Virus record (IMG/VR): IMGVR_UViG_2778261227_000013
Location: 1 to 16,267 of that record
Length of the DNA: 16,267 nt
DNA from: a virus
Lineage: Duplodnaviria; Heunggongvirae; Uroviricota; Caudoviricetes
Reading direction: 5' to 3' (one strand)
The translations under genes were made by a program, and so were the position numbers. Numbering within the stretch: the first letter of the stretch is position 1; each line of letters opens with the position of its first letter. This document shows, piece by piece, positions 1-14,899 of the stretch. The notes under the pieces are model-generated. The model was not told where the DNA came from. It ran no database searches and saw nothing but the letters and a program-made list of their open reading frames with translations.

Positions 1-1731
1 TTAGCCTGAGATATATTCGTCCGCTGCGTTCTTGATTATTTTTGACCTAACATTTTTAATGTACGGTATTTTTTTCAGATCATCCCTCGAACAGTGAACG
101 ATATCACCCACTTTAGGATAGGTTTCTTTTATTCGGTCGCATATTGCGTTACTAATTGACAAGCAACTAACCGGATCATCAAGAAGTTGTCCTACAATTG
201 ACCTTGTTGGTACAGGTGTCCCACACTTAGGACAAAACTTCGCATCTCCAGGTAACTCAGCGGAACAAGTTTGACACTCATCAGCTGATTCTTTCAATTT
301 TTCTAAAAAACGCTCTAATTCAGAATCTGCTGCGCCAAATTCTTTATAATCAGCGAGAGATAATAGTGTTATTATCTCCCCGAACTTATTAGATACGAAT
401 GCTTTTTCAGTGAAAAGTAATGATAAATTAACCATGTAGCGCTGACCCGATTTTCGATTAGACATCTTCACGGACCCTTGCTTGGAAAGAACACCAGAAT
501 AACAAAGCAAATCTAGAGACAATCTAAGATTTGGAGAAATAACGGGAGGAAGAACAAAAAAAGCAGATTGGGTTTGAGTCTTTTTCTCTCTGTTATTTTT
601 CAATCTAAGCTCAGGGATAATACACTCCCTAAGAATATCAAGTCCAATGCGAACATGGTGAGAATACTTAGGTAATCGTTTTGAAAGCCCTAAATGATAA
701 GGTAATAATTCTTGATTGACATAATCCTGAGTGCAAGTTAAAAGATCTCTTTCAGTATAACCTTTCTCATATACTTTATTAAATAAATGGAGAAATGCTC
801 TAGGGTTTCCGGATGAAAGATGAATACATTGATCTAGCAAATCACCTTTAGCCAATATTCTCTTTTTTGCTGCTCCTTGTGTGACCCGTTTATCTAATAG
901 ATCACGATATAAACGTCGTGTTCGTTCCCGCCCAATATTTCCAGTTTCGTATCCTCCGAGGTTTATCATCATGGCATCTTGACCAACTTCAAAATTTTTA
1001 CCATACGATGTAATTGACGGATATACAGCCGCCTTAACTGCAATTTTACCGCCATGAAGCAATTTAAATATTTCGAAGAATATTTCTTGCTGTTCTGGTA
1101 TAAAGGTATGAGCAGCCTCATCAAATAAAAAAACAATTCTATTAAGTTGGTATTCTTGAATTATCTCCTTGATGATGTCATTTACATAACTTATATCATT
1201 AACCTTATCTAAAAAATCCTCTCCAATTTCATTCAACAATTTATCTGAAGAAGGATCTCTTGATAACCTTTGAAGCAGATGAATTTTAGATTGTAGAGCA
1301 TCTTTCATCCCAGTTATAGTTTTAATCCCAAAAATTCTTTGAAATGGATCACTGCTATTATTGTCACGAATGACATCTAAAAATATCAACTTTTCGTACA
1401 AAGCTTGTAGTAACTTAGCGCTTACCCATATCTGAAATGCATTTTTATTGTCAGCTTTAACCCCTTCCAGCAAAGTACTGGTTTTGAAATTAACATATAC
1501 CCCCACAATCTTTTTAACAGGAAAATCACTATCTAATTCAGCTTCTGCCGCTCTTAGAAGCATAGACTTTCCAATTCCTCTGGCACCCTGAATCAGATGA
1601 GAGCCCGCTATTTTTAGTTTTGCTACAACATCTTTTTCAAACTCACCAAGAACAGCCAGTTGTTTGACCTGTTTCAACTCAAGATCTTCGGTACGTGCTG
1701 CATGTAATAACTCAGTGTCTAACATAGACAT
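1..1731 (-). CDS. P-loop NTPase with C-terminal zinc ribbon and RpoA alpha-CTD-like helix-hairpin-helix domain; candidate defence/cargo protein
   Basis: Complete 576-aa ORF with ATG at 1729-1731 and TAA at 1-3. Walker A GARGIGKS near residue 50, Walker B-like IVFLFDEAAH, and an SSGNPRAF sensor-like motif. C-terminal CQTCS...CPKCG four-cysteine ribbon, then a segment resembling the RNA polymerase alpha C-terminal domain (LSISNAICDRIKE...VGDIV...DDLKKIPYIKNVRSKII). One-nucleotide TAATG overlap with the upstream gene; GAGGT upstream. Very AT-rich. Confidence 0.8.
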   Translation of the reverse strand: MSMLDTELLHAARTEDLELKQVKQLAVLGEFEKDVVAKLKIAGSHLIQGARGIGKSMLLRAAEAELDSDFPVKKIVGVYVNFKTSTLLEGVKADNKNAFQIWVSAKLLQALYEKLIFLDVIRDNNSSDPFQRIFGIKTITGMKDALQSKIHLLQRLSRDPSSDKLLNEIGEDFLDKVNDISYVNDIIKEIIQEYQLNRIVFLFDEAAHTFIPEQQEIFFEIFKLLHGGKIAVKAAVYPSITSYGKNFEVGQDAMMINLGGYETGNIGRERTRRLYRDLLDKRVTQGAAKKRILAKGDLLDQCIHLSSGNPRAFLHLFNKVYEKGYTERDLLTCTQDYVNQELLPYHLGLSKRLPKYSHHVRIGLDILRECIIPELRLKNNREKKTQTQSAFFVLPPVISPNLRLSLDLLCYSGVLSKQGSVKMSNRKSGQRYMVNLSLLFTEKAFVSNKFGEIITLLSLADYKEFGAADSELERFLEKLKESADECQTCSAELPGDAKFCPKCGTPVPTRSIVGQLLDDPVSCLSISNAICDRIKETYPKVGDIVHCSRDDLKKIPYIKNVRSKIIKNAADEYISG

Positions 1732-2420
1732 TATAAAACTACCTCACTAGATTTAGGAAATGAAGATAGCACTTCTTTTCTTATCTTATGACGAACAATA
1801 TTGGAATTAATTATCATACCCAAAACAACCTCAGCCAGACCTATGAACCTCTCCCAATCTTCACTTTCAAAAGTGAACTTATTAGGCAAATCAGTTTCAA
1901 ATGAGGTTATTTTTCCATGAACGATATCACTTAATTGTCCATAAATTTTCTGTGCTCTTCTCATATCAATAACACATACTTTCCCTCCTATCTTCTCATT
2001 TTCTGTGAAGTAGTCTATATAGCCTTGATTTGTTATATGCTTCAACATATCACTGAAACTTAAGTCTTCATCATGATTTTTCCAAGAATATACAACATGA
2101 GGCATATCCCAAAGATAAATAGATGCGACACCTAGTTCCAAAACTCTCCTTAGAACAATATTAGCTGGTTTATCTATGGCACAGGCAGAAAGATATAAAG
2201 AAGATGACGTATCAGCAATAATCTCACTAAAAATTTTAATACAAACATCATGATGAACTGATGTTTTCTTTTTATTCAAAATTTCAGCAATCGTGTTAAG
2301 AGTGAAAATTGAGATAATTACTTTATCTAATTTTTTATCTTGTATGCCCTGCCATTCACGAAAGTTACTATTGAACTTATCGCTTAGCATATTAATTATC
2401 TCAGTAGGTGATTTGTTCAT
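1731..2420 (-). CDS. Hypothetical protein (229 aa), first gene of the AT-rich cargo operon; no recognisable motif
   Basis: ORF with ATG at 2418-2420 and AAGGGA upstream. Its stop overlaps the start of the downstream NTPase gene by one nucleotide, suggesting translational coupling. Same AT-rich composition as its partner. Confidence 0.7.
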   Translation of the reverse strand: MNKSPTEIINMLSDKFNSNFREWQGIQDKKLDKVIISIFTLNTIAEILNKKKTSVHHDVCIKIFSEIIADTSSSLYLSACAIDKPANIVLRRVLELGVASIYLWDMPHVVYSWKNHDEDLSFSDMLKHITNQGYIDYFTENEKIGGKVCVIDMRRAQKIYGQLSDIVHGKITSFETDLPNKFTFESEDWERFIGLAEVVLGMIINSNIVRHKIRKEVLSSFPKSSEVVL

Positions 2421-2520
2421 TTATTATGCATATCCCTTGTTTTTATCTGTCAATCAATAAGATAATAAGTATAATTTTATAATACAAGAAAATAAAAAGC
2501 CTTATTGATGTGTTTTATTG
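2421..2520 (-). promoter_or_regulatory. AT-rich putative promoter region for the two-gene cargo operon
   Basis: About 100 bp of very AT-rich non-coding sequence directly upstream of the 229-aa gene, at the composition boundary with the island backbone. No specific -35/-10 hexamers were assigned. Confidence 0.3.
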
Positions 2521-2741
2521 CTACTAAAGCGCGCAATGCTCTCCCCAGCAGGCCTGCCCGCTACACAGAGCAGTTTTCATGCAAGTGCATGATAAAAGCC
2601 TATCAGAATCGGCAGTTTTCAACATAAACGCCCACTAGCTACAGAGTGCAATTTTTCGTCATCGGCAATATCAACAACTAAACGCATAAATCAGACAAAC
2701 TGCTACCCGGCTCAATTTTGAGCCGTCTTTTAATCAACGGG

Positions 2742-2921
2742 TTATCGCCGCAGCATGTCCGGTTTCTTCCACTGATACGGCCTCACATCATCATGCTGGT
2801 GGCGTTCCTGTTGCAGCACAACGGAAACAGGCGCTGAACACCTGTTAATTTTGCTTGCTGGTTGTTTGATTTCGGCAATGCTGCGGAGCATCTCCAGCAT
2901 ATCGGCTTCGGTGATGGTCAT
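2742..2921 (-). CDS. Possible small protein (59 aa), hypothetical
   Basis: ORF not in the supplied track (below its size cutoff). ATG at 2919-2921 with AAGGTG about 8 nt upstream; translation MTITEADMLEMLRSIAEIKQ...DMLRR; TAA at 2742-2744. Confidence 0.25.
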   Translation of the reverse strand: MTITEADMLEMLRSIAEIKQPASKINRCSAPVSVVLQQERHQHDDVRPYQWKKPDMLRR

Positions 2922-2952
2922 GATTTACACCTTAGGAAATCTTAGGGGCTGG

Positions 2953-3205
2953 TTGACACTTTCCGGCTTAGGACCTTAACAAATCTTAACATCGCAGGTT
3001 GACACACTTGACACTTTTTCGCGAAAAACCTTATCAAACCTTAGCATTTCTAAGCATGGCAACTTGACACTTTTCGCGATTTTTTCGGCTTTTTGACGTG
3101 GTAAATCTGGCGAAAGGCCAGTAATGGCGCGGCTTACAGCGAGGTTGACACTTTTTCGCGTTCAGAGTGTAAAGTGTCAACCTGGCAAGCTGCTCAACTT
3201 GACAC
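2953..3205. repeat. Array of seven TTGACAC motifs (six direct, one inverted), three extended as TTGACACTTTT(T)CGCG; candidate protein-binding or packaging-recognition array
   Basis: TTGACAC at 2953, 2999, 3008, 3064, 3145 and 3199; inverted GTGTCAA at 3174. A TTGACGTG variant lies at 3093. The array sits immediately downstream of the Nu1/TerS-like HTH gene. Confidence 0.6.
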
Positions 3206-3214
3206 TTTTTGATG

Positions 3215-3742
3215 TCATTGATGGTCTGATTTTTCCCATTCAGCCAGGGCGTTTAGCCCGGCTTCACTCCATGATTCCAGTTCATCGGGACAATCACCTG
3301 CAACATAGCAGAGTTCGCAACGCAGCATACGAATTGCCAGCCTGGCATTACCTCGCAAATTGTATTGTTCAAAGTAATGCTGCCCGTCGCAATCCTCAAG
3401 GCAGATAGCACCATCATCAAGAAAGTGCACTTCCCAGCCTAATTCCCCGGCTGCATCCTGCACACGCTGCTGTATGCCCTCGTCCGTTGCTGGCGCAGGA
3501 ATTTTACCGCCTCTGGCCTTAACTGCTTTCCAGAACTCGCCCCACGTCATTTCCAGCGTTCTCTCTGGCCACATTTCAGAAACTGTGTCTTTTCCCTGTG
3601 CTGGTGGGCTGTTCCGCTGCTCTGTCGCTTCCACATCGATTTTTTTACCGGACATGACCACTTCGCCTTTCTCGATCCAGTCGTAAACTGTCTGGCGGCT
3701 TACGCCTTTGTGTTTGGCATATTCTGCCTTACTCATCAGCAT
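3215..3742 (-). CDS. Nu1/small-terminase-like N-terminal HTH protein (175 aa); possible packaging-redirection (Rpp-like) protein
   Basis: N-terminal SKAEYAKHKGVSRQTVYDWIEKGEV resembles the winged-HTH of lambda Nu1-type small terminase subunits. AAGGGTGAG upstream of the ATG at 3742; 6-nt gap from the upstream gene. Confidence 0.6.
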   Translation of the reverse strand: MLMSKAEYAKHKGVSRQTVYDWIEKGEVVMSGKKIDVEATEQRNSPPAQGKDTVSEMWPERTLEMTWGEFWKAVKARGGKIPAPATDEGIQQRVQDAAGELGWEVHFLDDGAICLEDCDGQHYFEQYNLRGNARLAIRMLRCELCYVAGDCPDELESWSEAGLNALAEWEKSDHQ

Positions 3743-3748
3743 TATGAC

Positions 3749-4420
3749 TCACCCTTCTTTTTCCAGTTGAGCCAGCCGCCCGGATATTTCTTCCAGTTTT
3801 TCCAGGGCTGGCTTGCAGGCCGCATCAATAACGTCCCGGACCATTCCGGCAAGCTGTTCTTCTGCTGTCGGCGTTGTTACTTCCACGCCCGATGGTTTCC
3901 CGCCCTTATCCCAAACACCAAGCGGCACGAGCGCAACGTGATCGATAAGAAATGGCGTACCCTCAATAAAAAAATTGTCCTCGCCCATTACATCAGGAAC
4001 TTCTGCCCCACCTGAGGCACCACAAAACACAACCGACGGACTGGTGGATACCTCCCCTCGGGCTTTCTGGATGTAATCGATGATTTCCTGTCCGTAAATC
4101 CGGCATACGCCCCACACCTCGTCACCGCGAATATACGGCAACATGACGGTGCCAATAATGCGCGACCGTTCGCCCACGTCTTCAAGGGTTTTGCTTTCGG
4201 GATGGTCGATAATGACGGGTACTCCGGCGCAACGTTCCAGGAACTGCGGATTGAGATAAGTTTGCGGTGAACGCCAGACAAATTCTTTTTCTTCGGCGCG
4301 GTAGGCCATTCCGGTTCCTGTGATACGCAGGTTAACCAGCCACATGTTGGAAAACTGATAAGGCGACGGTAGCTGTCCGTCCCGAATCTGCTTCGCCGCC
4401 TCAATTTCTGTTAAAAGCAT
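3749..4420 (-). CDS. Hypothetical protein (223 aa)
   Basis: Long ORF in operon arrangement with the downstream HTH gene. No clear Shine-Dalgarno before the ATG at 4420, so the start is uncertain. An imperfect hairpin lies in the upstream intergenic region. Confidence 0.6.
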   Translation of the reverse strand: MLLTEIEAAKQIRDGQLPSPYQFSNMWLVNLRITGTGMAYRAEEKEFVWRSPQTYLNPQFLERCAGVPVIIDHPESKTLEDVGERSRIIGTVMLPYIRGDEVWGVCRIYGQEIIDYIQKARGEVSTSPSVVFCGASGGAEVPDVMGEDNFFIEGTPFLIDHVALVPLGVWDKGGKPSGVEVTTPTAEEQLAGMVRDVIDAACKPALEKLEEISGRLAQLEKEG

Positions 4421-4484
4421 AATGTTATCCGGTTATAAGCAATAAGCCCCGCCAAATCCGGCAGGGCTGAACTCAGCACGTTTT

Positions 4485-5063
4485 TCATGCCCCCGCGAGG
4501 CTTGCAGTGTTAATTTTGACCAGGCGACGGGGAGGGATTTTGAAAGCACTAAGCCAGTTATTCGGATCCCCCTGATATTCAGTAATCCGCCGTCCGGCTT
4601 CATCCATTCTTACGGTTTTACGCAAATAGCCCGGCGTATTTTCCACAGCCCACTGAACACTGTCTTTTGCAGCCTGGTAAATCTGATCTTCCAGCACCGC
4701 CAGCGTTGCAGAATCTGAAACGGAACGAATATCCACATCACTGAATTTTTTAGCCAGCTTCTGTGCACCAATTAATGCACGCTTGCGGTAATCCATCGAC
4801 TTTTCGCCAGCAAACGGGGCCGGAGCGCGACGCCCCATATTGCTGTATGCGGAATCCGCTTTGGCCTGGGCTTCTGCCAGTGAGGATTCATCTTCGACTG
4901 ACGCGACGATGTTTTGATTAGCGTTATCCTCTTTTATGAAATCCTGTGCGGGGATCGCATTCAGAATTTCGATAATCTCCTGCGGAGTGCTTCCCTGCGA
5001 CTCTGACAGAGCGTTAACCACCTCCATCAGTTTTAATCGCAAATCTTCTTTGCTTGCTGGCAT
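4485..5063 (-). CDS. Hypothetical protein (about 192 aa)
   Basis: The track ORF begins at a GTG at 5072. An ATG at 5063 preceded by GAGAGGTGG is the more likely start (MPASKEDLRLK...). Confidence 0.6.
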   Translation of the reverse strand: MPASKEDLRLKLMEVVNALSESQGSTPQEIIEILNAIPAQDFIKEDNANQNIVASVEDESSLAEAQAKADSAYSNMGRRAPAPFAGEKSMDYRKRALIGAQKLAKKFSDVDIRSVSDSATLAVLEDQIYQAAKDSVQWAVENTPGYLRKTVRMDEAGRRITEYQGDPNNWLSAFKIPPRRLVKINTASLAGA

Positions 5064-5102
5064 TTTTACCACCTCTCTTTTTTCACCAAAAAATCACGAC
5101 CA

Positions 5103-5276
5103 TCAGGCCGGACGTTCTACGGGATAAAGCGCCCGCTGCATTAAACGCCGGGCGACCTCATGAATGCTCGGAGCAATCCCCAGCGGAGAATTGCGGCGTT
5201 CCTCGTCCTGGATGCGCTGTAATGCTTCAATCTGATCACGAGCGAGTAAAACGGGTTTCACGCTGGCTTTTCTCAT
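5103..5276 (-). CDS. Small hypothetical protein (about 57 aa)
   Basis: AGGAG lies 8 nt upstream of the ATG at 5276 (MRKASVKPVLLARDQIEALQ...). The track's longer start at 5300 lacks a suitable ribosome-binding site. Confidence 0.5.
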   Translation of the reverse strand: MRKASVKPVLLARDQIEALQRIQDEERRNSPLGIAPSIHEVARRLMQRALYPVERPA

Positions 5277-5410
5277 AGTCATATCTCCTGAACAAAACAA
5301 TGGTTATGATTGCATAAACTGAAATGACGATCTACATCATTGCAATTTATGAAACGATAACGCATGATGATCGCGTTCTTCCCATTGACTTCAATCACCT
5401 GAAAAACAAA

Positions 5411-5472
5411 GCCCGCAACACTTCTGGCTGCGGGCTTTTTACTGGCACAAAAAAGCCGGGAAAAATCCCGGC
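5411..5472 (-). terminator. Tandem intrinsic-terminator-like hairpins downstream of the PerC-like gene
   Basis: GCCCGCA...TGCGGGC hairpin at 5411-5435 flanked by T/A runs on both sides. GCCGGG-aaaaat-CCCGGC hairpin at 5455-5472, followed on the minus strand by TTTTTT. Confidence 0.6.
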
Positions 5473-5477
5473 CTCCG

Positions 5478-5765
5478 TCACTGACTGCAATTTTTCGATC
5501 CAGGGTATTTCCTGAATGCCTTACCATTGGGCTGATGTAATCCCATCCCGGCATGTGCCCGGCTGATGGTTTCGCGCATCTCCCCGAAATTATCCTGCCT
5601 TGCTGGTGGGCGTGCTGCCTTGCGGATACATTCCGCGCGACGTTTTGCCGCCTGTTCCCGTGCCTTGTCATCATTCGCCAGCATGATGACCTCAGCCCAC
5701 CGCGCCGCCGCTCTCCGGTACAGACCACGCGCTTCCAGTGCTTCCGCTTTGCTGTCGTGAATCAT
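5478..5765 (-). CDS. PerC-like small transcriptional regulator (95 aa), tentative
   Basis: Translation MIHDSKAEALEARGLYRRAAARWAEVI... matches my recollection of the PerC-family N-terminal signature. ATGA overlap with the stop of the upstream ProQ/FinO gene. Confidence 0.55.
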   Translation of the reverse strand: MIHDSKAEALEARGLYRRAAARWAEVIMLANDDKAREQAAKRRAECIRKAARPPARQDNFGEMRETISRAHAGMGLHQPNGKAFRKYPGSKNCSQ

Positions 5766-6346
5766 GCGCCTGTTTTCTCCTTTGCTACCCGGCGCTGACG
5801 TTTGCGCTTCTCATTCAGCGCCACCAGCCGCGTTTCTGCGTCCTGTTGTTCCTGTGGTGTCACCTCGCCGCACGGCTGGCCTTTCAGGTCGTAGCGTACC
5901 CCACCAGCCATTAAGGCGCGGTAATAGCGCGGACACTGCGCATAAGATGCCAGCGTCGCACGTAATGCCCCTGGCCCGAATGCCAGCCCCCTGACGGCGA
6001 GATCCTGCATCAGGTCGTCGAATACCCCCACCTTTAGCGGCTTCGGTGCTTCCCGGCTGAATAATTCTGGCCACAACTCAGTGAGGCGGTTAACGCGTCT
6101 GCGGTTTTTTCGCTGCCGTTTGGTCATATGCCGCCACGGTGTCGCCCCTGTGGGCTTCTGCTGCGCTTTCTGGTTACCGGGCATCACTTTATGCGCCGAT
6201 GTGGTTTTATCCTGCTGCTGCTGCTGCGCCGCCTTCGTCGTTTTCTGCGGCGTGCCGTAAATGCCTTTCGGTTTTCTGTTAATGGTCAGCTTAGTCATGC
6301 TTTGCCCCATCGTTTTTACTGATTGTTTCATATCCGGTACTTTCAT
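5762..6346 (-). CDS. ProQ/FinO-domain RNA-binding protein (194 aa; start uncertain)
   Basis: Segment LTELWPELF...PLKVGVFDDL...LRATLASYAQCPRYYRALMAGGVRYDLKGQPCGEVT parallels the ProQ N-terminal FinO domain (PLKIGIFQDL...RVDLDGNPCGEL) as recalled. Basic, Q-rich N-terminus. No good ribbon-binding site before the first ATG. Confidence 0.75.
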   Translation of the reverse strand: MKVPDMKQSVKTMGQSMTKLTINRKPKGIYGTPQKTTKAAQQQQQDKTTSAHKVMPGNQKAQQKPTGATPWRHMTKRQRKNRRRVNRLTELWPELFSREAPKPLKVGVFDDLMQDLAVRGLAFGPGALRATLASYAQCPRYYRALMAGGVRYDLKGQPCGEVTPQEQQDAETRLVALNEKRKRQRRVAKEKTGA

Positions 6347-6351
6347 CTTCT

Positions 6352-6637
6352 GGGTAGAGGGGTAGACGGAGGGTAGATAACAAAAAATAGTCCTCTACCC
6401 ACTTAACTTAATGAAAAAAAACAACTTTCACACATTAGGTAGAGGGGTAGACCGTAAAATAGAAAAGTTTGAAACTTACTTTCTTACAATCTGTGTTTTC
6501 CTCTCGCTGTATAAAAAGTTTTTTGAGCGGGGATGTTGTCTACCCCTCTACCCACTTCTCTGAAAGCCTTGTGCTACGAGGGATTCAGCGGGTAGACAAT
6601 AAAAAATCACCATCTACCCTGTGTCTACCCATCTACC
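6352..6637. repeat. Iteron array GGGTAGA(G/C/T) in direct and inverted copies with A-rich spacers; putative replication origin
   Basis: Direct copies at 6352, 6360, 6371, 6438, 6445 and 6590. Inverted copies at 6393, 6538, 6546, 6612, 6623 and 6631. A-rich spacers between clusters. Located immediately downstream of the primase/helicase gene. Confidence 0.75.
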
Positions 6638-6654
6638 TGTTACGGGTATTACTC

Positions 6655-8403
6655 TTATAAAAATTCCTCGGTTCTCTCCGTTTGTATAACGTTGGTTTGT
6701 ATTCGTCCTTTAAAACCTCTTGTCAGGTATTCAGCCCCATATTCTCTTGCTGCTGACTTCATGGCCTTACCAAAATCACCGACACTTAATATTTCTTCTT
6801 CCCCCATATACTCCATAAAGGCGAGATATAGTCTGTACAGGCTTGTACGCGGATTAAGATCAGTTAATCTCTTACCGCCTCCCATCATCATCCCATGCGG
6901 TTCATCAAGAAATGCAAGCGCCGCACATAACCCAATGACAGGATCAGTTTCCTGTTTTATTTTCAGAGCTTCGGCACCGTCGCGCTGCTCCAACAATAAT
7001 TCCCGTGCTTTTTCTGGATCGGAAAAGTTAGCCAGTAATCGACGAATAATGACAGGTATTTCCGCCGCTATCTTTTGCGGTAACTCTTTATCCTTTTCGG
7101 TCTCCCTTACAATATTATCGAACCGAAAAATTACACGTCGACGCGCAACGCCTCCGGCCCGTTCGGTGAATGTCATCGGCACGTTATTTGTTGCCAGCAC
7201 GACGGACCTGATAATTGTTGTGAAACGCTTTTCATATTTCGGGTTAATTTCAACTGGATCTCCACCCGTTATTTTTTTGATGCCGGATCCTTCACCTGTA
7301 TATTTCGGCTGGTCTGCCAGGACAATAAGACGACTTCCGACAACCTGCGCACGCCCGCCAGCATCATCAAGCGATGTCATTTCAGCGCTTACCGTGTTCT
7401 GTTTCCCTGCCAGAAGGGTGGCTATGTGCGTGATTGTGCTCTTGCCGCTCCCGCCTTCCCCTGTGGCCTCAATAAACATCTGCCAGTCGTACCGGTTCGC
7501 CATAATCATGTACAGCGCGGCGCATATACGCATCATCTTTCGCGGGTCTTTTCCTGCGGCGTGATCAAGCCATTTATGAAAGTTTGGCGCGTTGTCGCGG
7601 ATGTTCTCCCCTGGTACTGGTGGCGTGTACTCAATGCCGTTATGCGTGGTGATCCAGTTATCCGGCGAGTGCGGGGAAAATTCGCCAGTTTTCATGTCAA
7701 GCACGCCATTAGAGAACGGCAATAAATCACCTGACGGTTCCCCCATTGGCCTGGCCATAACTTTTAAAGCATCCACTGCATTACTTATTGCTCTCCGACT
7801 AAACGATGTTCCGTTTTCTTCGTAAATAGCCACCATTTCACGACTAAGATCCAGTGTGCTTACCGGAACCCAAAAATCATCGCGCCAGACGTGGACAACC
7901 TCACTCTCCTGATTCATTGCTACATCCTGAAATCGTTCAGCTAAAAGTTTTGCCCTTTGGCTGTCCGCCATTCTGGAAAGAGATATTTTGTGTTTTTTCT
8001 CGGTCCTTCCTGACAGAATTTCTCCGCGCTCAGCCTGTTCGCGGATCCGTTGCAGGTAGTCGCGCCAGTTCTCCGGTTCCTGGTCGGTGATGCCTTTGTA
8101 TAATTTCGCCTCCTGTACGCCAGCCAGCGCCAGCTTTTCAGCGATAGCATTGATCTGGATTGGCTCGATCTCCCCCGCGAGATAGACACGCGCAAAGCGG
8201 CGTTTCTCGTCAATAATGCGGATATTCGCCAGGTCTGCCAGTTGCTTTGGTCCCAGATAAACAGGTGGCACGTTATCGCAGTGTTTTCGTCCTTCGCTTT
8301 CAATCCAGTGTTGGGCATGGGCGTAAGCATCCGTCCCGGCAAAAATGATTACCTCAGTGAATTTATCCTTCGGCTGATATTTCAAACTCGGTGCGTTTTT
8401 CAC
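6655..8403 (-). CDS. P4-type primase/helicase-like replication protein with D5-like NTPase (582 aa)
   Basis: Walker A GEGGSGKST and Walker B-like LIVLAD within a long ORF, followed directly by the iteron array. Family assignment is from recalled resemblance to phage/plasmid P4-family primase C-terminal regions. Start overlaps the upstream gene by 4 nt. Confidence 0.8.
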   Translation of the reverse strand: MKNAPSLKYQPKDKFTEVIIFAGTDAYAHAQHWIESEGRKHCDNVPPVYLGPKQLADLANIRIIDEKRRFARVYLAGEIEPIQINAIAEKLALAGVQEAKLYKGITDQEPENWRDYLQRIREQAERGEILSGRTEKKHKISLSRMADSQRAKLLAERFQDVAMNQESEVVHVWRDDFWVPVSTLDLSREMVAIYEENGTSFSRRAISNAVDALKVMARPMGEPSGDLLPFSNGVLDMKTGEFSPHSPDNWITTHNGIEYTPPVPGENIRDNAPNFHKWLDHAAGKDPRKMMRICAALYMIMANRYDWQMFIEATGEGGSGKSTITHIATLLAGKQNTVSAEMTSLDDAGGRAQVVGSRLIVLADQPKYTGEGSGIKKITGGDPVEINPKYEKRFTTIIRSVVLATNNVPMTFTERAGGVARRRVIFRFDNIVRETEKDKELPQKIAAEIPVIIRRLLANFSDPEKARELLLEQRDGAEALKIKQETDPVIGLCAALAFLDEPHGMMMGGGKRLTDLNPRTSLYRLYLAFMEYMGEEEILSVGDFGKAMKSAAREYGAEYLTRGFKGRIQTNVIQTERTEEFL

Positions 8404-9479: not shown

Positions 9480-9696
9480 GGTGCACCTCCTGCACATCAG
9501 CCATGATAATTTTTCCGGCCTTATCCAGTGCCTGATCGGCTTTTAGCTGCACAAATGCTAAATAATGGGAGATGCATTCTGATTCTCTGACTGCGTGTTT
9601 ATGCGCCACACCAGCGATAGCTGAAATCTCAATAAGTGAATCCATCAGCGTTTTGATAGCGTCTACCGCTGCATCAGGCCATGTTACATTACACAT
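9472..9696 (-). CDS. Hypothetical small protein (74 aa)
   Basis: AGGAGGTGGAG upstream of the ATG at 9696; 8-nt ATGTGTAA overlap with the upstream gene. Confidence 0.6.
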   Translation of the reverse strand: MCNVTWPDAAVDAIKTLMDSLIEISAIAGVAHKHAVRESECISHYLAFVQLKADQALDKAGKIIMADVQEVHHA

Positions 9697-10054
9697 GCTC
9701 CACCTCCTGGCGAATACGGGCAGCGAATACCATCACGCAGCCATCAGGGGATTGCTGGCGTGCTTCCTGTTCGCTGGTGGCCTCGATGTGAATTACGCGC
9801 GGTTGTGCTGTGCTCAGGGCGATAAAACGCCAGATAAAATTGTTCTCGCATTTCTGAATAAACAGCGTGTTTTCTTCGCGCCCTTTCCATGTTGCCGAGA
9901 TATAGCCCATGTCATTGAGCATCTCGCAGGCATCAACCAGCGTATCAGCAGCTACGTGTACAGTGTTTTTACCGTCAGCTATGCAATCACGGTGCACCGC
10001 CAGGAAGGTGTATATAAATTTAGGGTGAGTTTGGGTATGCTGTGTTCCAGCCAT
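9689..10054 (-). CDS. Hypothetical protein (121 aa), first gene of the leftward operon
   Basis: ATG at 10054 preceded by GAGGT. It is the C-terminal part of the 510-aa track ORF, whose upstream portion is judged non-coding or shadow. Confidence 0.6.
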   Translation of the reverse strand: MAGTQHTQTHPKFIYTFLAVHRDCIADGKNTVHVAADTLVDACEMLNDMGYISATWKGREENTLFIQKCENNFIWRFIALSTAQPRVIHIEATSEQEARQQSPDGCVMVFAARIRQEVEHV

Positions 10055-10143
10055 AATCGTTACCTCATTTAACGGTTTGGTTAGACGCCCCGCTACTGCC
10101 GCAAACAGTTCGGGGCGTTGTCGTTTACATCCTCTTACTGAGG

Positions 10144-10219
10144 TGTGATTTAAATTAAATTTAACTGAATCACAGGTCAAGTATTTTTTGTGATTCTTTT
10201 TTGTGTATACTGAATCACA
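10144..10219. promoter_or_regulatory. Divergent promoter/operator region with two 31-bp palindromes TGTGATT-N17-AATCACA
   Basis: Palindrome 1 at 10144-10174 and palindrome 2 at 10189-10219. Palindrome 2 encloses a TATACT -10-like hexamer (10206-10211) for the rightward gene. A leftward TTGACC -35-like hexamer (complement of 10175-10180) lies beside palindrome 1. Confidence 0.6.
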
Positions 10220-10241
10220 TCTTTTGTTTAGGAGAATGCAC

Positions 10242-10547
10242 ATGGCAAAAAACACTATCAACGACAAATCAAAACAGATTTCAATTCGTATCCCACATGA
10301 TGCTTTTGAAGGCATGGAATCCGTAAAACTGGACGGTGAAAGCAACGCCGGATTCATAGTAACCGCCATGCGCGGTGAGATCGCCCGCCGCCAGGCAGAA
10401 GGAAGCGGAGAAAATCCCCTGGTTTCTTCGCTCGATGCGCTGGCGCAGGTGGAAAAAATCGGAGTCAAAGCTGCCGAGGAGATCGGGCAGCTCGTCACCG
10501 TCGCACGTGAAGAACTCCAGCGCCGCAAGGCCAAAGAATCAGAATAA
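10242..10547 (+). CDS. Ribbon-helix-helix-like (Arc/MetJ/CopG-type) DNA-binding regulator (101 aa), tentative
   Basis: AGGAG 8 nt upstream of the ATG at 10242. N-terminal KQISIRIPHDAFEGMESV...NAGFIVTAMRGEIARRQ has the strand-helix-helix pattern; the C-terminus is charged and coiled-coil-like. Confidence 0.6.
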   Translation: MAKNTINDKSKQISIRIPHDAFEGMESVKLDGESNAGFIVTAMRGEIARRQAEGSGENPLVSSLDALAQVEKIGVKAAEEIGQLVTVAREELQRRKAKESE

Positions 10548-10604
10548 TAACTATCATCGCCGTGGTGTGAGGAACTCCGGCGCATTGCTTTACAGGTACA
10601 CAGA

Positions 10605-10799
10605 ATGACCAACAAAGAATCAACCAATACACCATCACCGGCACGGAAAAGACGGCGCAGAAAGATAGAGCATGAATCAGAAAGATTCGCGCCATGTGCT
10701 TTTGCCCTTGAGCAATTCCTTAAAGAGTACAGGCGCACAAAAATGGGATCGCATACCTGGAAAACATCGCGGCATGGCAATGTTAAAGAGCATGAATAG
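10605..10799 (+). CDS. Possible small basic protein (64 aa), hypothetical
   Basis: ORF downstream of and co-oriented with the RHH-like gene; weak AGGT upstream. Composition is plausible (K/R/E-rich), whereas the opposite-strand frame here is Cys/Ser-rich. Confidence 0.3.
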   Translation: MTNKESTNTPSPARKRRRRKIEHESERFAPCAFALEQFLKEYRRTKMGSHTWKTSRHGNVKEHE

Positions 10800-10829
10800 C
10801 CCACCAGCAAGCCAGCACACTGATCACAT

Positions 10830-11221
10830 TGCCCACCAGCCGCAAATCTGGCATTGTTGGCAATGTGTTCAAGTGTGTAGCTTTCCCACTGGTGGCCCTC
10901 TGCAGTCGCCTTTGTTTTATCCAGAACGAAATCAGACATCAGATTGATCAGCACCTGGTGACCTGACAAAATCGCATCAGTCGCGCCACCAGCAAAATTT
11001 TTTGCTTTCCGGACAGCGTGGCTAACGGCATTTTGCAGCAAAATATTCTGCATTTCTGGCGTACTGTAGTAACAGTGATCAGCGCCTTCACTCTGTGCGA
11101 CCACAACGCTATAATCTGCCTCGTAGACAGTAAGCAATATGGCGCAGTAGGCTATTCGTTCACAAAGGCGCTCCGGCAACGGGGCGCTTTCTCTTTTTGT
11201 AACGGTCAGAGCGTTACACAT
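10830..11221 (-). CDS. Candidate gene with unresolved 3' end (5' part of the 510-aa track ORF); possibly a remnant
   Basis: ATG at 11221 preceded by GGAGGA, with an 8-nt ATGTGTAA overlap to the antirepressor gene stop. The first roughly 130 codons look protein-like, but there is no in-frame stop until 9689. The 3' coordinate is approximate. Confidence 0.3.
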
Positions 11222-12358: not shown

Positions 12359-12502
12359 ACCCTCAGGCCTAATGGTTACCGGAAGGAAATTAACCCTAAG
12401 GGTGATGGTAATCGGGAGGAAATCTACCCTAAGGGTGATGGTAAAATTGACGGGGAAGATAAAAAAATACCCTCAGGGTAACAGTAAATCATCCTCAGGG
12501 TA
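12359..12502. promoter_or_regulatory. Upstream region of alpA with five ACCCT(A/C)AGGG palindromic boxes, including a 31-bp tandem duplication
   Basis: Boxes at 12359, 12393, 12426, 12469 and 12492. Copies at 12381-12411 and 12414-12444 are near-identical (GGA[A/G]GGAAAT[T/C][A/T]ACCCTAAGGGTGATGGTAA). Confidence 0.55.
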
Positions 12503-12516
12503 TGCGGTATGGTGCG

Positions 12517-13314
12517 TTAATCCGGCTTTGCGTTCTTTTGGCTGTTGTCTCGGTTAATAGGGCAGGCAGTCCTCTCTATGAGCGTTGCAAGTGCATTACT
12601 TGCCCCCCACTGCTTAAGCTCCCTGGTTATCGCTTCTTGATTTCCCCTGGTGGCAAAATCATTTTCTGGATCGTAATTGGCCCACTCTCTGTTTCTAATC
12701 TCAATAGCCTTAGCTAATGGGTCTTTATCCCAGTATTTATATAAGTGTATCGGGCGCTCTTGCTCTAACTGCTCTATCCTTGCCCTTAACTCTGCGTTTT
12801 CTTTTTCCAGCATTGCGATTTGGGATAATAAATCATCCTCTGTACGCAACTCTTTCTTTTCAATATCGCGTCCTTGTGCCTCGTCATTTTCAGAAGAGTT
12901 AGCGCCTTCCAGCTTCGTTAACGCGTCAAGGACATCGGGAAAAATTGCGAAAATTTCACCCCTTATAAATCCAATGTTCTCAAATTCGGGATCTTCCCAA
13001 TAACCGGACACCAGAAAACCATTTTCATCCCTCTCACCAGGTAAACAACCACGTTTCCGAACCGCATTCAGATTTCTATAAAGAACATCATAATCAAATT
13101 CATCCCGATACGGGTTACAAAAAGATTCCAACAGCTTAAATTCATTTACTGTGTACAGGCGGATATGTTCTCCGCTTATTCTCCTGAGTATCCAAGTTAT
13201 GACATCTGAAACATCATAATCATCACCAGCGACCTTAAGCACGACCTCAAGAAATTCACGTAAAGAAATAAAATCTTTTTTGTATTCGTTTAATTCGGCA
13301 TGAATATCAATCAT
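12517..13314 (-). CDS. Hypothetical protein (about 265 aa) with central coiled-coil; AT-rich cargo-like gene between int and alpA
   Basis: The track ORF starts at a GTG at 13320; an ATG at 13314 preceded by GAGGTG is more likely. Coiled-coil-like segment LSQIAMLEKENAELRARIEQLEQE. Visibly AT-rich relative to its neighbours. Confidence 0.65.
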   Translation of the reverse strand: MIDIHAELNEYKKDFISLREFLEVVLKVAGDDYDVSDVITWILRRISGEHIRLYTVNEFKLLESFCNPYRDEFDYDVLYRNLNAVRKRGCLPGERDENGFLVSGYWEDPEFENIGFIRGEIFAIFPDVLDALTKLEGANSSENDEAQGRDIEKKELRTEDDLLSQIAMLEKENAELRARIEQLEQERPIHLYKYWDKDPLAKAIEIRNREWANYDPENDFATRGNQEAITRELKQWGASNALATLIERTACPINRDNSQKNAKPD

Positions 13315-13442
13315 ACGCACACCTCAGCGTCCTCTACTGTAGTGGCTGTACCAGTCCGTCGAGGTGTACGGATTTTCGGGAGCGACCCTAGACACAGCCT
13401 TTTCTTTCGTCGCTCAAAGTCTACTACTGTATACGCAACCAG

Positions 13443-14657
13443 TCATCCACATTTTCCGAACTTGCCATGCACCACGTTACCGCCATGTTCGAGCGAATCC
13501 ATATAGTCGGCGTACCACTGGAGCATCTCGCGCCGCCCGTCCAGATATTGCGCATGATTGTACGTGCCACGAATTGAGTTCTTATCAACGTGTGCAAGCT
13601 GCGTTTCTATCCACGCGGTGTTATAGCCCTGCTCATGTAAAATCGTGCTCATGGTGTGCCGGAATCCATGACCAGTAACCTTTCCGTTATAGCCGATGCG
13701 TTTAAATACTTGGTTTATGCTAGCCTCGCTCATTGTTTTCCTTGGATCATTACGGCCGGGAAACATAAGCGGATAATTACCAGTTAATTCTTTAATCTGC
13801 CCAATAAGAGAAAGAGCCTGCTTAGACAAAGGCACCACATGAGGGCGACGCATTTTCATCCGTGAAGCAGGTATCTCCCAGATAGCCTTGTTGAGATCGA
13901 TTTCATCCCATAATGCACCGCGCAGTTCGCCAGTTCGCAAACCAGTGATAATCAGTAGACGAGCCGCCATAACAACCAATGCACTTCCTGAGTAACTGGA
14001 CAATGCCTTGAAAAAATCAGGCAATTCTTTGGCTGTGAGGAAAGGATAATGATTAGATTCATGGCCTTGCATCGCGCTAGTAAGATCTGGGGCAGGGTTA
14101 TACTCTGCGCGACCAGTGACTATTGCATAGCGGAAAACTTCCCCGCACCGCTGCCTCACTTTTTTGGCTTTTTCTGTAGCACCGCGCCCCTCGATGCGTC
14201 GCAGCACATTCAGAAGTTCAAGTGGTTTGATTTCGGCAATTGGTTTTTTGCCAATGTAAGGGAACACATCTTTGTTGAAGGCTTCGAGGATATCTGAAGC
14301 ATAACCAGCAGACCATTTTTTTAATTTGCTGCTGTGCCACTCAAGGGCAATATCTTTGAAGGTATTGTTTAACTGCGTTTCCCGGGCAATCTTTTCCTCT
14401 CGTTTCGCTTCCATCGGATCGATACCCCCAGCGATACCCCTTTTAGCTTCTTCACGTTTTGCACGAGCATCAGCCAAGGTAACTTCAGGATACACACCTA
14501 GTGCTAACAGCTTCTCTTTACCAGCTACACGATATTTAAAGCGCCAGTATTTTCCTCCACTAGGTTTTACCAGGAGATACAGACCACCACCATCAGCCAG
14601 CTTGTAAGCCTTCTCTTTTGGCTTGGCAGTGTCTATTTGACGGGCATTGAGTTTCAC
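13443..14657 (-). CDS. int: Tyrosine recombinase / phage integrase (P4-type, with N-terminal arm-binding domain), 404 aa
   Basis: N-terminus AKPKEKAYKLADGGGLYLLVKPSGGKYWRFKY is typical of P4-like integrases. C-terminal catalytic region contains HGFRHT and a terminal Y (GTYNHAQY). GTG start at 14657 with GGAGGT upstream. Directly adjacent to the tRNA 3' end. Confidence 0.93.
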   Translation of the reverse strand: MKLNARQIDTAKPKEKAYKLADGGGLYLLVKPSGGKYWRFKYRVAGKEKLLALGVYPEVTLADARAKREEAKRGIAGGIDPMEAKREEKIARETQLNNTFKDIALEWHSSKLKKWSAGYASDILEAFNKDVFPYIGKKPIAEIKPLELLNVLRRIEGRGATEKAKKVRQRCGEVFRYAIVTGRAEYNPAPDLTSAMQGHESNHYPFLTAKELPDFFKALSSYSGSALVVMAARLLIITGLRTGELRGALWDEIDLNKAIWEIPASRMKMRRPHVVPLSKQALSLIGQIKELTGNYPLMFPGRNDPRKTMSEASINQVFKRIGYNGKVTGHGFRHTMSTILHEQGYNTAWIETQLAHVDKNSIRGTYNHAQYLDGRREMLQWYADYMDSLEHGGNVVHGKFGKCG

Positions 14658-14823: not shown

Positions 14824-14899
14824 TGGTGCCGATAATAGGAGTCGAACCTACGACCTTCGCATTACGAATGCGCTGCTCTACCAACTGAGCTATATCGGC
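14824..14899 (-). tRNA. thrW: tRNA-Thr (anticodon CGU)
   Basis: The reverse complement reads GCCGATATAGCTCAGTTGGTAGAGCAGCGCATTCGTAATGCGAAGGTCGTAGGTTCGACTCCTATTATCGGCACCA: a 76-nt cloverleaf-compatible sequence with a CGT anticodon and encoded CCA end. Confidence 0.96.

Follow-up and report, generated by a model that had tools for sequence, protein, structure and literature searches.

A candidate two-gene anti-phage defence cassette built on an ORC/Cdc6-type AAA+ ATPase and carried in a thrW island

Introduction

Like the A-B gene pair described here, in which the small protein is a putative effector, the PARIS, Septu, Lamassu and Gabija defence systems combine an NTPase with a small effector, and are sporadic and AT-rich. 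Among the places in which such cargo resides, P4-like satellites carry the best-understood defence hotspot, the published position between psu and int (PMC9122126). DefensePredictor Table S10 lists a protein identical to our B (WP_061352522.1) as a "predicted novel defense gene" with a mean log-odds of 9.56; this is a prediction by machine learning, and the pair is outside the set tested in that paper.

We analysed the pair, which sits at the distal end of a phage-satellite island of E. coli, in a viral window of 16,267 nt, the window being the whole stretch of DNA under analysis. The first-pass annotation had taken it for a candidate undescribed defence or accessory system. The word undescribed holds for the pair, of which our literature search found no description beside the DefensePredictor listing, but not for B, which that listing already contains. 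The supplements of Rousset 2022 do not list the A and B proteins.

Results

Gene structure and base composition

The first-pass annotation described two coupled genes encoding 229 and 576 residues and sharing one nucleotide, and both the ORF list and the sequence agree with it (Table 1). At the A-B junction the minus strand reads ...GTTTTATAATGTCT..., base 1731 being common to the TAA stop of A (1733-1731) and the ATG start of B (1731-1729). This overlap couples A to B translationally, with a GAGG 10 nt before the start of B. Homologues fall into 418 clusters for B and 78 for A, or 169 with a profile; by sequence, both ORFs are real genes and both are strongly conserved. The pair is compact, at 2.4 kb, and of E. 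coli source.

The AT-rich character of the block and of its own upstream region (2421 to about 2600), as noted earlier, is evident from a GC content of 29-39% across intervals spanning 1-2750 against about 47-61% over most of 2500-6250. The upstream region is the presumed promoter; since a sigma-70 scan upstream of A gave nothing above chance, the promoter itself is not pinpointed. Position 1 of the window is exactly the end of the B stop codon, and the operon terminator therefore lies outside the window.

Table 1. Coordinates of the gene pair, the motifs and domains of B, and the island end in the window
Feature	Position	Strand	Basis or remark
Gene A	1731..2420	-	229 aa, six-frame ORF list; predicted all-helical, divergent DUF5677 relative; putative effector, or regulator, acting with B
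Gene B	1..1731	-	576 aa, six-frame ORF list; predicted ORC/Cdc6-type AAA+ ATPase
TAATG stop/start overlap A-B	1729..1733	-	Read from sequence
AT-rich upstream region of cassette, presumed promoter	2421..2592 (AT-rich to about 2600)	-	DNA homology to Kosakonia
Walker A (P-loop) of B, GARGIGKS, residues 49-56	1564..1587	-	G49, R51, G52, G54, K55, S56 invariant, 41 homologues
Walker B of B, VFLFDE, residues 200-205	1117..1134	-	L202, F203, D204, E205 invariant, 41 homologues
GNPR motif of B, residues 308-311	799..810	-	G308, N309, P310, R311 invariant
C4 zinc ribbon of B, CxxC...CxxC, residues 486-503	223..276	-	Pfam Zn_Ribbon_1, DZR; C486, C489, C500, C503 invariant
C-terminal domain of B, residues 510-576	4..204	-	Probable helix-hairpin-helix like RNA polymerase alpha CTD
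tRNA-Thr (thrW), attL end of island bearing cassette	14824..14899	-	ARAGORN

Protein B

Its primary structure marks B as an AAA+ ATPase of the ORC/Cdc6 type in which the Walker A, Walker B and GNPR motifs are all intact. In a profile search it scored 51.7 bits against Pfam PF24389 (ORC-CDC6-like; cut-off 27) over residues 38-286, and precomputed annotation places PF24389 on its homologues as well. B carries both the Walker A pattern GxxGxGK[ST] and the Walker B pattern hhhhDE, with the key residues invariant in 41 sequences. The GNPR motif sits where Cdc6/Orc1 carries the sensor-2 arginine, and by this analogy we take it to be a candidate sensor 2. The fold is nearest to Cdc6/Orc1 of the initiator clade, with likeness also to TnsC, MuB, MalT, BrxC and RdrA, and a search of solved structures by sequence gave zinc-ribbon matches only.

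A helix-then-hairpin pattern at about residues 400-435 is suggestive of a winged helix, which the model is not able to confirm because the predicted structure is poor (pLDDT <50) throughout residues 353-473. Residues 510-576 probably adopt a helix-hairpin-helix fold resembling the RNA polymerase alpha CTD. Since hhalign gave no significant alignment of B with the RpoA CTD of E. coli (E 0.019), this call rests on a distant relative that terminates, as B does, in ...EYISG; its equivalent domain matches RNA_pol_A_CTD at E 3e-4 and HHH_5 at E 3.7e-4, each under the curated cut-off. The ORC/Cdc6-type motifs, the zinc ribbon and the C-terminal module thus accord with the initial view of the large protein as an NTPase with nucleic-acid-binding-type C-terminal domains.

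Protein A

A is all-helical, with hints of a HEPN-like fold. It scored 16.3 bits against DUF5677 (PF18928), under the cut-off of 27.1, and a weak DUF5677 match appears in 44 of 53 relatives of A (best E 5.7e-6); these weak matches suggest that A is distantly related to DUF5677, not a member of it. The Rx4-6H motif of HEPN is absent, as the invariant R91, R92, H108, H128 and H168 are never 4-6 residues apart, and Foldseek against the PDB returned no match with E <0.2. The partner of a distant B relative shows a weak HEPN_RiboL-PSP match together with an R-x4-H motif. The statement that the small protein has no recognisable catalytic motif is therefore only partly right: it is correct for Rx4-6H, but A does possess invariant residues, polar ones and histidines, besides the HEPN-like hints. 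A DUF5677 ORF assayed in E. faecalis, a different protein distant from A, was not among the ORFs reported as protective.

Linkage, spread and genomic setting

The pair behaves as a conserved unit. Of 40 species genomes, which represent many bacterial phyla and one archaeon, 39 have A immediately upstream of B in the same orientation, and the junction is equally tight in 37 other loci, with gaps of -16 to +22 nt. The pairing extends even to a distantly related B-like protein, whose partner is A-like (hhalign probability 98%, E 1.8e-13). Homologues of B have a median identity of 53% to the B of the window, and those of A a median identity of 35% to its A. A conserved third gene was rejected, the flanking genes being different in nearly every locus. 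Only 4 of 5,426 complete E. coli genomes contain the pair, and its GC content is below that of the flanks at 40 of 41 loci (median difference -10 points); this rarity and the low GC are signs of horizontal transfer.

Most homologues are chromosomal, in distant phyla and the archaeon, with no satellite near. Ordinary housekeeping genes are the neighbours at many loci, and in Alcanivorax the pair is a two-gene insertion among them. No homologue was found in 50,697 deposited phage genomes. P4-like satellites from three further genera have close homologues beside int, in support of the satellite accessory hotspot initially proposed. In Kosakonia (94% identity) and Citrobacter (83%) the psu-int interval holds the pair, and Serratia (82%) has it between delta and int. 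The pair is also found on prophage contigs, both P1-like and lambdoid. It adjoins dndBCDE and, in Enterobacter, SIR2-HerA, and DNA methyltransferases of restriction-modification are its neighbours at 5 of about 38 loci. A sister satellite has a SieB gene in the same distal slot as the window's pair, and a distant relative on a plasmid adjoins ParDE and HipA modules. Across about 38 loci, no transposase, replication or centromere-binding gene is consistently beside the pair.

Origin of the copy in the window

The window's copy and the foreign integrase fragment joined to it are a piece of a P4 hotspot that now lies within the thrW island. The shared P4-like block consists of the upstream region, A, B and a 3' fragment of int, with no psu gene. 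It has 82% DNA identity to the Kosakonia P4-like hotspot over 3,009 nt, beginning 166 nt upstream of A. The limits of 1-2520 initially assigned to the AT-rich block capture its place but not its extent, since the foreign block runs on the right to about 2592, the end of DNA homology to P4-like satellites, and on the left about 400 nt past the window's end, where the terminator hairpin (CCCCAT-GTAA-ATGGGG-T8, within about 60 nt of position 1) and an integrase fragment in convergent orientation are located (L001 17584-17995). The integrase fragment is truncated and frameshifted.

The thrW gene in Table 1 marks one end of the island. The probable attR, TGGTGC-GATAATAGGA, lies about 830 nt to the left of the window start (L001 17158-17173). 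This candidate, a copy with a 1-nt deletion, was found by an exact-word search, and 25-mer and 14-mer searches allowing mismatches returned no attR. Both frames are intact here, and they are 99.9-100% identical in three other genomes; the copy of strain SCU-316 carries indels, and its annotation shows three short ORFs.

Comparison with protein models

The best match of the window's A and B in PADLOC-DB 2.0.0 had an E of 0.0089, which is not significant, and a PADLOC scan of all members of both alignments gave nothing consistent. Neither protein matched a defence model of NCBIfam 20.0 above its cut-off; B reached 27 bits against the DS-41 model (NF053860, DS41_1; cut-off 370). These results sustain the earlier impression that the pair corresponds to no known defence system. 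Nor does it belong to a named non-defence family, because B matches only generic ORC-CDC6-like and zinc-ribbon models and A only DUF5677, weakly. A transposition or partition ATPase pair was also considered. The likeness to TnsC/MuB is at the level of the fold only, with no Pfam or NCBIfam match to a TnsC/MuB or ParA-type family, and a TnsC/MuB-type transposition role was rejected since no transposase is linked.

Discussion

We consider it reasonably probable that the pair is a self-contained, horizontally mobile two-gene cassette for defence against phages or other mobile elements. The gene structure, the domain content, the intact ATPase motifs, the strict pairing, the mobility and the residence in defence hotspots and islands are established; beyond these we infer the defence phenotype, the sensing of DNA, an A-B complex and the effector role of A. 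B would be the sensor and switch, an ATP-dependent AAA+ protein of the ORC/Cdc6/STAND type that may bind nucleic acid via the C4 zinc ribbon and the probable winged-helix and helix-hairpin-helix domains. Because B is unusually conserved across phyla, the trigger would seem to be universal and not phage-specific, likely a constant feature of DNA that is invading the cell or being replicated, as opposed to a variable phage protein. A, presumably made in stoichiometric amounts through translational coupling, would be the partner under the control of B, most likely a HEPN-like helical effector, and could halt infection through an attack on RNA or some other essential target, perhaps to the detriment of the cell.

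Several observations count against a defence role. Conservation of B at 53%, compared with 35% for A, is unusual for an immune sensor. Housekeeping genes adjoin the pair at many loci, deposited phage genomes hold no homologue, neither protein significantly matches a validated defence protein, and A has neither Rx4-6H nor a significant Foldseek match. The DUF5677 ORF assayed in E. faecalis, though distant from A, is missing from the protective set, and B is poorly modelled over residues 353-473.

In a more specific form of the defence explanation, which we regard as rather unlikely, B would be an initiator-derived immune sensor and A an unrecognised catalytic variant of HEPN/DUF5677, both nearly unchanged from E. 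coli to an archaeon. Through the winged helix, zinc ribbon and helix-hairpin-helix modules, B would then recognise a structural hallmark of DNA that is invading or replicating, for instance ends, nicks or a melted region like that of an origin, and would activate A, which might use an R-R-E and H-G-K constellation instead of Rx4-6H. The same two-protein machine would thus operate in E. coli, Firmicutes, cyanobacteria and one archaeon.

Other functions have to be weighed against a defence cassette. A tightly coupled combination of one small and one large protein, sporadic and AT-rich, residing on satellites and prophages and having a distant plasmid relative beside ParDE and HipA, would also suit an addiction or toxin-antitoxin-like module, in which one protein is toxic and the other restrains it, stabilising the carrier element without dedicated phage sensing. 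However, neither Pfam nor NCBIfam assigns A or B to a toxin or antitoxin family, and an ATPase of 576 aa and several domains, with three modules that putatively bind DNA, far exceeds the needs of an antitoxin. Such a module is unlikely; since many toxin-antitoxin modules act in phage defence, it would overlap with the defence explanation rather than exclude it. We judge it very unlikely that B serves a mobile element as an ATPase for replication initiation, DNA maintenance or target selection (of Orc1/Cdc6, DnaA, TnsC or MuB type) with A as an accessory. P4-like and thrW satellites have their own primase-helicase, the pair occupies the variable cargo slot of P4-like elements and not the replication module, no transposase or replication gene is consistently adjacent at the loci surveyed, and insertions of the two genes among housekeeping genes, as in Alcanivorax, speak against it as well.

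Residence in the accessory slots of satellites and prophages would also suit a pair that serves its carrier against helper phages or host defences, by interference or counter-defence, instead of protecting the cell. We find this highly improbable, given that the majority of homologues are chromosomal, in distant phyla and an archaeon, and have no satellite near, and the strict conservation in such different hosts argues against a fit to a particular helper phage. With regard to the window alone, the cassette might be an inert remnant left by a decayed P4-like element and have lost its expression or function, as the damaged integrase fragment, the lack of an above-chance promoter and the broken SCU-316 copy could indicate. 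This is distinctly unlikely, because the intact frames recur almost unchanged in three other genomes, the genes have kept both their 166-nt upstream region and their terminator hairpin, and long open frames in DNA of about 35% GC do not persist without selection.

If the pair does protect against phages, it would add a new type of system to the bacterial immune repertoire, with a sensor of the ORC/Cdc6 replication-initiator kind and an effector without a known catalytic motif. Its small size, its E. coli source, its link to the P4 hotspot and the conservation of B make it attractive for experimental work. The locus is also a concrete case of cargo moved between two kinds of satellite together with a piece of the donor integrase. 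Its importance is tempered by its being one of roughly a thousand predicted defence gene clusters of E. coli.

A defence cassette of this composition differs from the described systems in distinct ways. DS-41, a single-gene AAA ATPase validated in the DefensePredictor study, resembles B only in the P-loop (hhalign E 0.0025, 70 columns) and, unlike B, has no zinc ribbon and no partner. Of the PF24389 model, only the N-terminal half aligns with B; in comparison with the Orc1/Cdc6 initiators of archaea and eukaryotes, B has an additional C4 zinc ribbon and probable helix-hairpin-helix domain and a constant small partner, and is found in accessory or defence slots, not at origins. BrxC of BREX and the DUF499 ATPases of BREX-related systems, some of which are fused to HEPN, show no sequence-level match to B, and PglZ, PglX and BrxA/B genes are absent near the pair; the DUF499 architecture is far larger than B, whose partner is a separate protein without Rx4-6H. 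As for RADAR, the pair matches neither the rdrA nor the rdrB model of PADLOC, RdrB is an adenosine deaminase whereas A is a helical protein of 229 aa, and the gene order is reversed. HEPN effectors and DUF5677 proteins are set apart from A by the missing Rx4-6H motif, a Foldseek result that is not significant and a score of 16.3 bits against a required 27.1. PARIS, Septu, Lamassu and Gabija are made of other protein families, and their PADLOC models do not match the pair. Crouga, Bandua, Aernus, Toga, Reve and Hailong, newly validated in the 2026 P4 study, have architectures other than that of A-B. With the P4 psu-int cargo systems (PMC9122126, PMC13586616), the pair shares the very slot that it occupies in other genera.

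The A-B gene pair and its conservation

At the junction of gene A (229 aa) and gene B (576 aa), the minus strand of the window reads ...TTTATAATGTCT..., where the A stop codon (TAA, 1733-1731) and the B start codon (ATG, 1731-1729) have one base in common, and GAGG is located 10 nt 5' of the B start. GC content lies between 0.29 and 0.39 in 1-2750 and then rises to 0.47-0.61 for most of the following 4 kb. The ORFs, the one-base TAATG overlap and the base composition thus bear out the two overlapping genes in an AT-rich block that the first-pass annotation described.

To evaluate the pair as a unit, one genome per species was scanned, yielding 40 loci with a B relative. They are distributed over Gamma-, Beta- and Deltaproteobacteria, Campylobacterota, Nitrospirae, Acidobacteriota, Verrucomicrobia, Cyanobacteria, Bacteroidota, Bacillus, Actinomycetota and a Methanophagales archaeon. 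A profile search of all ORFs located an A-like ORF immediately 5' of B on the same strand in 39/40 loci, and the sole exception is a frameshifted long-read assembly. The same arrangement is present in Paenibacillus, Desulfobacter and Alcanivorax loci, and the A-B junction ranges from -16 to +22 nt (37 loci). Comparison of flanking genes across loci revealed no third conserved gene beside the pair. Even a distant B-like protein without the zinc ribbon keeps an A-like partner (hhalign probability 98%, E 1.8e-13). In 40 of 41 loci the pair is less GC-rich than its flanks (median difference, -10 points).

B belongs to a small family: of 1.84 billion 50%-identity cluster representatives, E<=1e-30 is reached by 124, E<=1e-10 by 295 and E<=1e-3 by 880. 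The mean column identity of the B alignment is 73% (41 sequences), and the E. coli and Paenibacillus proteins are 55% identical. Median identity to the window's protein is 53% for B versus 35% for A; such stronger conservation of the putative sensor than of its partner is unusual for an immune sensor.

Origin of the pair and its satellite island

The window is an E. coli thrW island, a PICI-like phage satellite that starts at the tRNA-Thr gene (Table). Since the window begins at the B stop codon, whose end coincides with the first base, anything 3' of the operon falls outside it, and the matching E. coli TUM9757 locus (L001) was used beyond this end. Window 1-2600 is 100% identical to TUM9757, and 2600-6400 only 97.1%, which shows that the window derives from another strain closely related to TUM9757. 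Directly past the B stop, a hairpin is followed by T8 on B's strand. B shares this terminator with the 3' fragment of a P4-like integrase gene that comes next, which is AT-rich, frameshifted and convergent to B.

Canonical P4-like satellites at ssrA in three other genera carry the pair with convergent int directly after it. The psu-int position corresponds to the defence hotspot described for P4 (PMC9122126). BLASTN aligns the Kosakonia element with the E. coli locus at 82% identity across 3,009 nt, in a block comprising 166 nt 5' of A, both genes and the 3' part of int, whose end coincides exactly with that of the E. coli integrase fragment. Window 1 to ~2592, together with ~400 nt outside it, is therefore a piece of a P4-like hotspot that now resides inside a different kind of satellite and retains a remnant of the donor's int. 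This block, 99.7-100% identical, adjoins at least three different E. coli satellite backbones, and the pair is present in only 4 of 5,426 complete E. coli genomes. In E. coli SCU-316 (L053) the copy is 98.7% identical with indels, and its annotation consists of three short hypothetical proteins; either it is decaying or its assembly is faulty.

TUM9757 has a probable attR ~830 nt left of the window start, consisting of the thrW 3' end minus one base, TGGTGC-GATAATAGGA. Its 11-nt exact core by itself is expected ~0.3 times by chance in the searched region; the call is based on the 16-nt match obtained on extension, together with the location of the site where island and conserved chromosome meet. 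The att-bounded island therefore includes the pair at its distal end, where it had been placed originally. This slot is variable, since in sister satellites with the same backbone it holds a SieB superinfection-exclusion gene in one and is empty in another.

Other features of the island were also observed. Between a 59-aa ORF and the small-terminase-subunit-like gene, the 10-mer AAAGTGTCAA is present in six copies, five on one strand and the sixth inverted (0.04 expected); these may form a binding array for packaging or regulation. Immediately 3' of the primase gene, GGTAGAGGGGTAGAC is repeated four times, with two copies in each orientation (0.01 expected), and these repeats are candidate replication-origin iterons. 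The 267-aa ORF adjoining the integrase has a lower GC content (0.42-0.45) and no match in Pfam or PHROG; because related satellites have a different gene there, its position may be a second variable cargo slot. A 510-aa open frame is probably not a gene; in the corresponding part of TUM9757 it overlaps several short annotated genes, among them the Icd-like gene and, on the opposite strand, the YlcI/YnfO gene.

Table. Features of the island and of related loci (window coordinates unless a locus is named)
Feature	Position	Strand	Remark
Gene B	1-1731	minus	ORF, 576 aa
Gene A	1731-2420	minus	ORF, 229 aa
AAAGTGTCAA array	2953-3208		six copies
GGTAGAGGGGTAGAC copies	6353-6637		four copies
tRNA-Thr (thrW)	14824-14899		with proA, island's starting end
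P4-type integrase	13443-14657		
267-aa ORF	12517-13320	minus	
33-nt tandem repeat	12372-12444		2.2 copies, between 267-aa ORF and HTH regulator gene
510-aa open frame	9689-11221	minus	
Anti-repressor and Icd-like gene			between integrase and ProQ/FinO, alongside primase
Primase	6655-8403		
ProQ/FinO and PerC genes			after primase
DUF2213 protein			head maturation protease-like
175-aa protein			small terminase subunit-like; last in order
Integrase fragment	L001 17584-17995		5-420 nt left of window start
Probable attR	L001 17158-17173		
SCU-316 pair copy	L053 9001-11618		
Kosakonia P4-like satellite			pair between psu and int; B 94% identical
Citrobacter freundii P4-like satellite			pair between psu and int; B 83% identical
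Serratia marcescens P4-like satellite			pair between delta and int; B 82% identical
Distant pair beside dnd genes	L059 815-8488		
Piscirickettsia salmonis 108-aa protein	L062 3959-4285		plasmid-borne

Genomic neighbourhoods

The pair is located on a 93-kb P1-like viral contig and also on a lambdoid prophage contig, where the replication genes lie on one side and a DNA methyltransferase on the other. It adjoins SIR2-HerA, ResIII helicase and dcm-vsr in Enterobacter, and resolvase, Uma2, reverse-transcriptase and transposase genes in Desulfobacter. In 5 of ~38 loci, the four closest genes include N6/N4 DNA methyltransferases. Other loci have plain housekeeping surroundings, compatible with a cassette inserting on its own. 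The pair is absent from all deposited phage genomes searched, and plasmids carry only distant relatives. In one locus (L059), a distant B-like ATPase and its A-like partner immediately adjoin a dndB-C-D-E cluster and a cysteine desulfurase, so one may ask if certain members of the family act together with DNA phosphorothioation.

Proteins B and A and their proposed roles

B matches ORC-CDC6-like above the cut-off, as well as a zinc ribbon (Pfam). Walker A (GARGIGKS), Walker B (LFDE), four cysteines and a GNPR motif at the place of the Cdc6/Orc1 sensor-2 arginine are all invariant. The AlphaFold model is moderate at residues 30-350 and poor at 353-473. The last 67 residues resemble the RNA polymerase alpha C-terminal domain by eye, and direct hhalign between the two was not significant; a distant family member, also ending in EYISG, matches Pfam RNA_pol_A_CTD and HHH_5 at E ~3e-4, both under curated cut-offs. 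Zinc ribbon and C-terminal domain also exist on their own, as a stand-alone 108-aa protein in a prophage-like region of Piscirickettsia salmonis plasmids (33% identical to B residues 486-575). B is thus an initiator/STAND-class ATPase, apparently active, that carries several putative DNA-binding modules, in agreement with the NTPase with a nucleic-acid-binding-type C-terminus read originally.

A is most aptly classed as a helical, DUF5677-like protein: its model is confident (pLDDT 90.9) and all helical, and 44 of 53 family members weakly match DUF5677. Its 14 invariant residues are polar, histidine, aromatic or structural, and it has no Rx4-6H motif. On a Limimaricola plasmid, the downstream partner of a distant B relative has a weak HEPN_RiboL-PSP match and an R-x4-H motif, and A may be a non-canonical HEPN relative. 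A Bacillota DUF5677 ORF, enriched near serine recombinases, was tested in E. faecalis and is not among the ORFs reported as protective.

We consider, with moderate confidence, that the pair most likely functions in defence, as a two-gene system that combines an ATPase switch with an effector and in which B would sense nucleic acid and A, the effector as we infer, would execute. These roles follow from domain content and the conservation pattern, and could be reversed. The observation behind the first-pass annotation is confirmed, and its interpretation as a candidate defence system is supported.

Comparison with known systems

PADLOC 2.0.0 and NCBIfam defence models match neither protein, consistent with the earlier failure to assign the pair to a known system. 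The DefensePredictor paper lists a protein identical to B, WP_061352522.1, in its Table S10, with a mean log-odds of 9.56 and the label "Predicted novel defense gene"; its sole similarity to a known defence protein, a TIR-NLR protein, spans 22% of its length, and it is outside the 118 transcription units tested there (PMC13092281). The pair is unnamed and unvalidated, with one of its two genes already flagged computationally. Six systems were newly validated from P4 hotspots in 2026, and their architectures are unlike that of the A-B pair.
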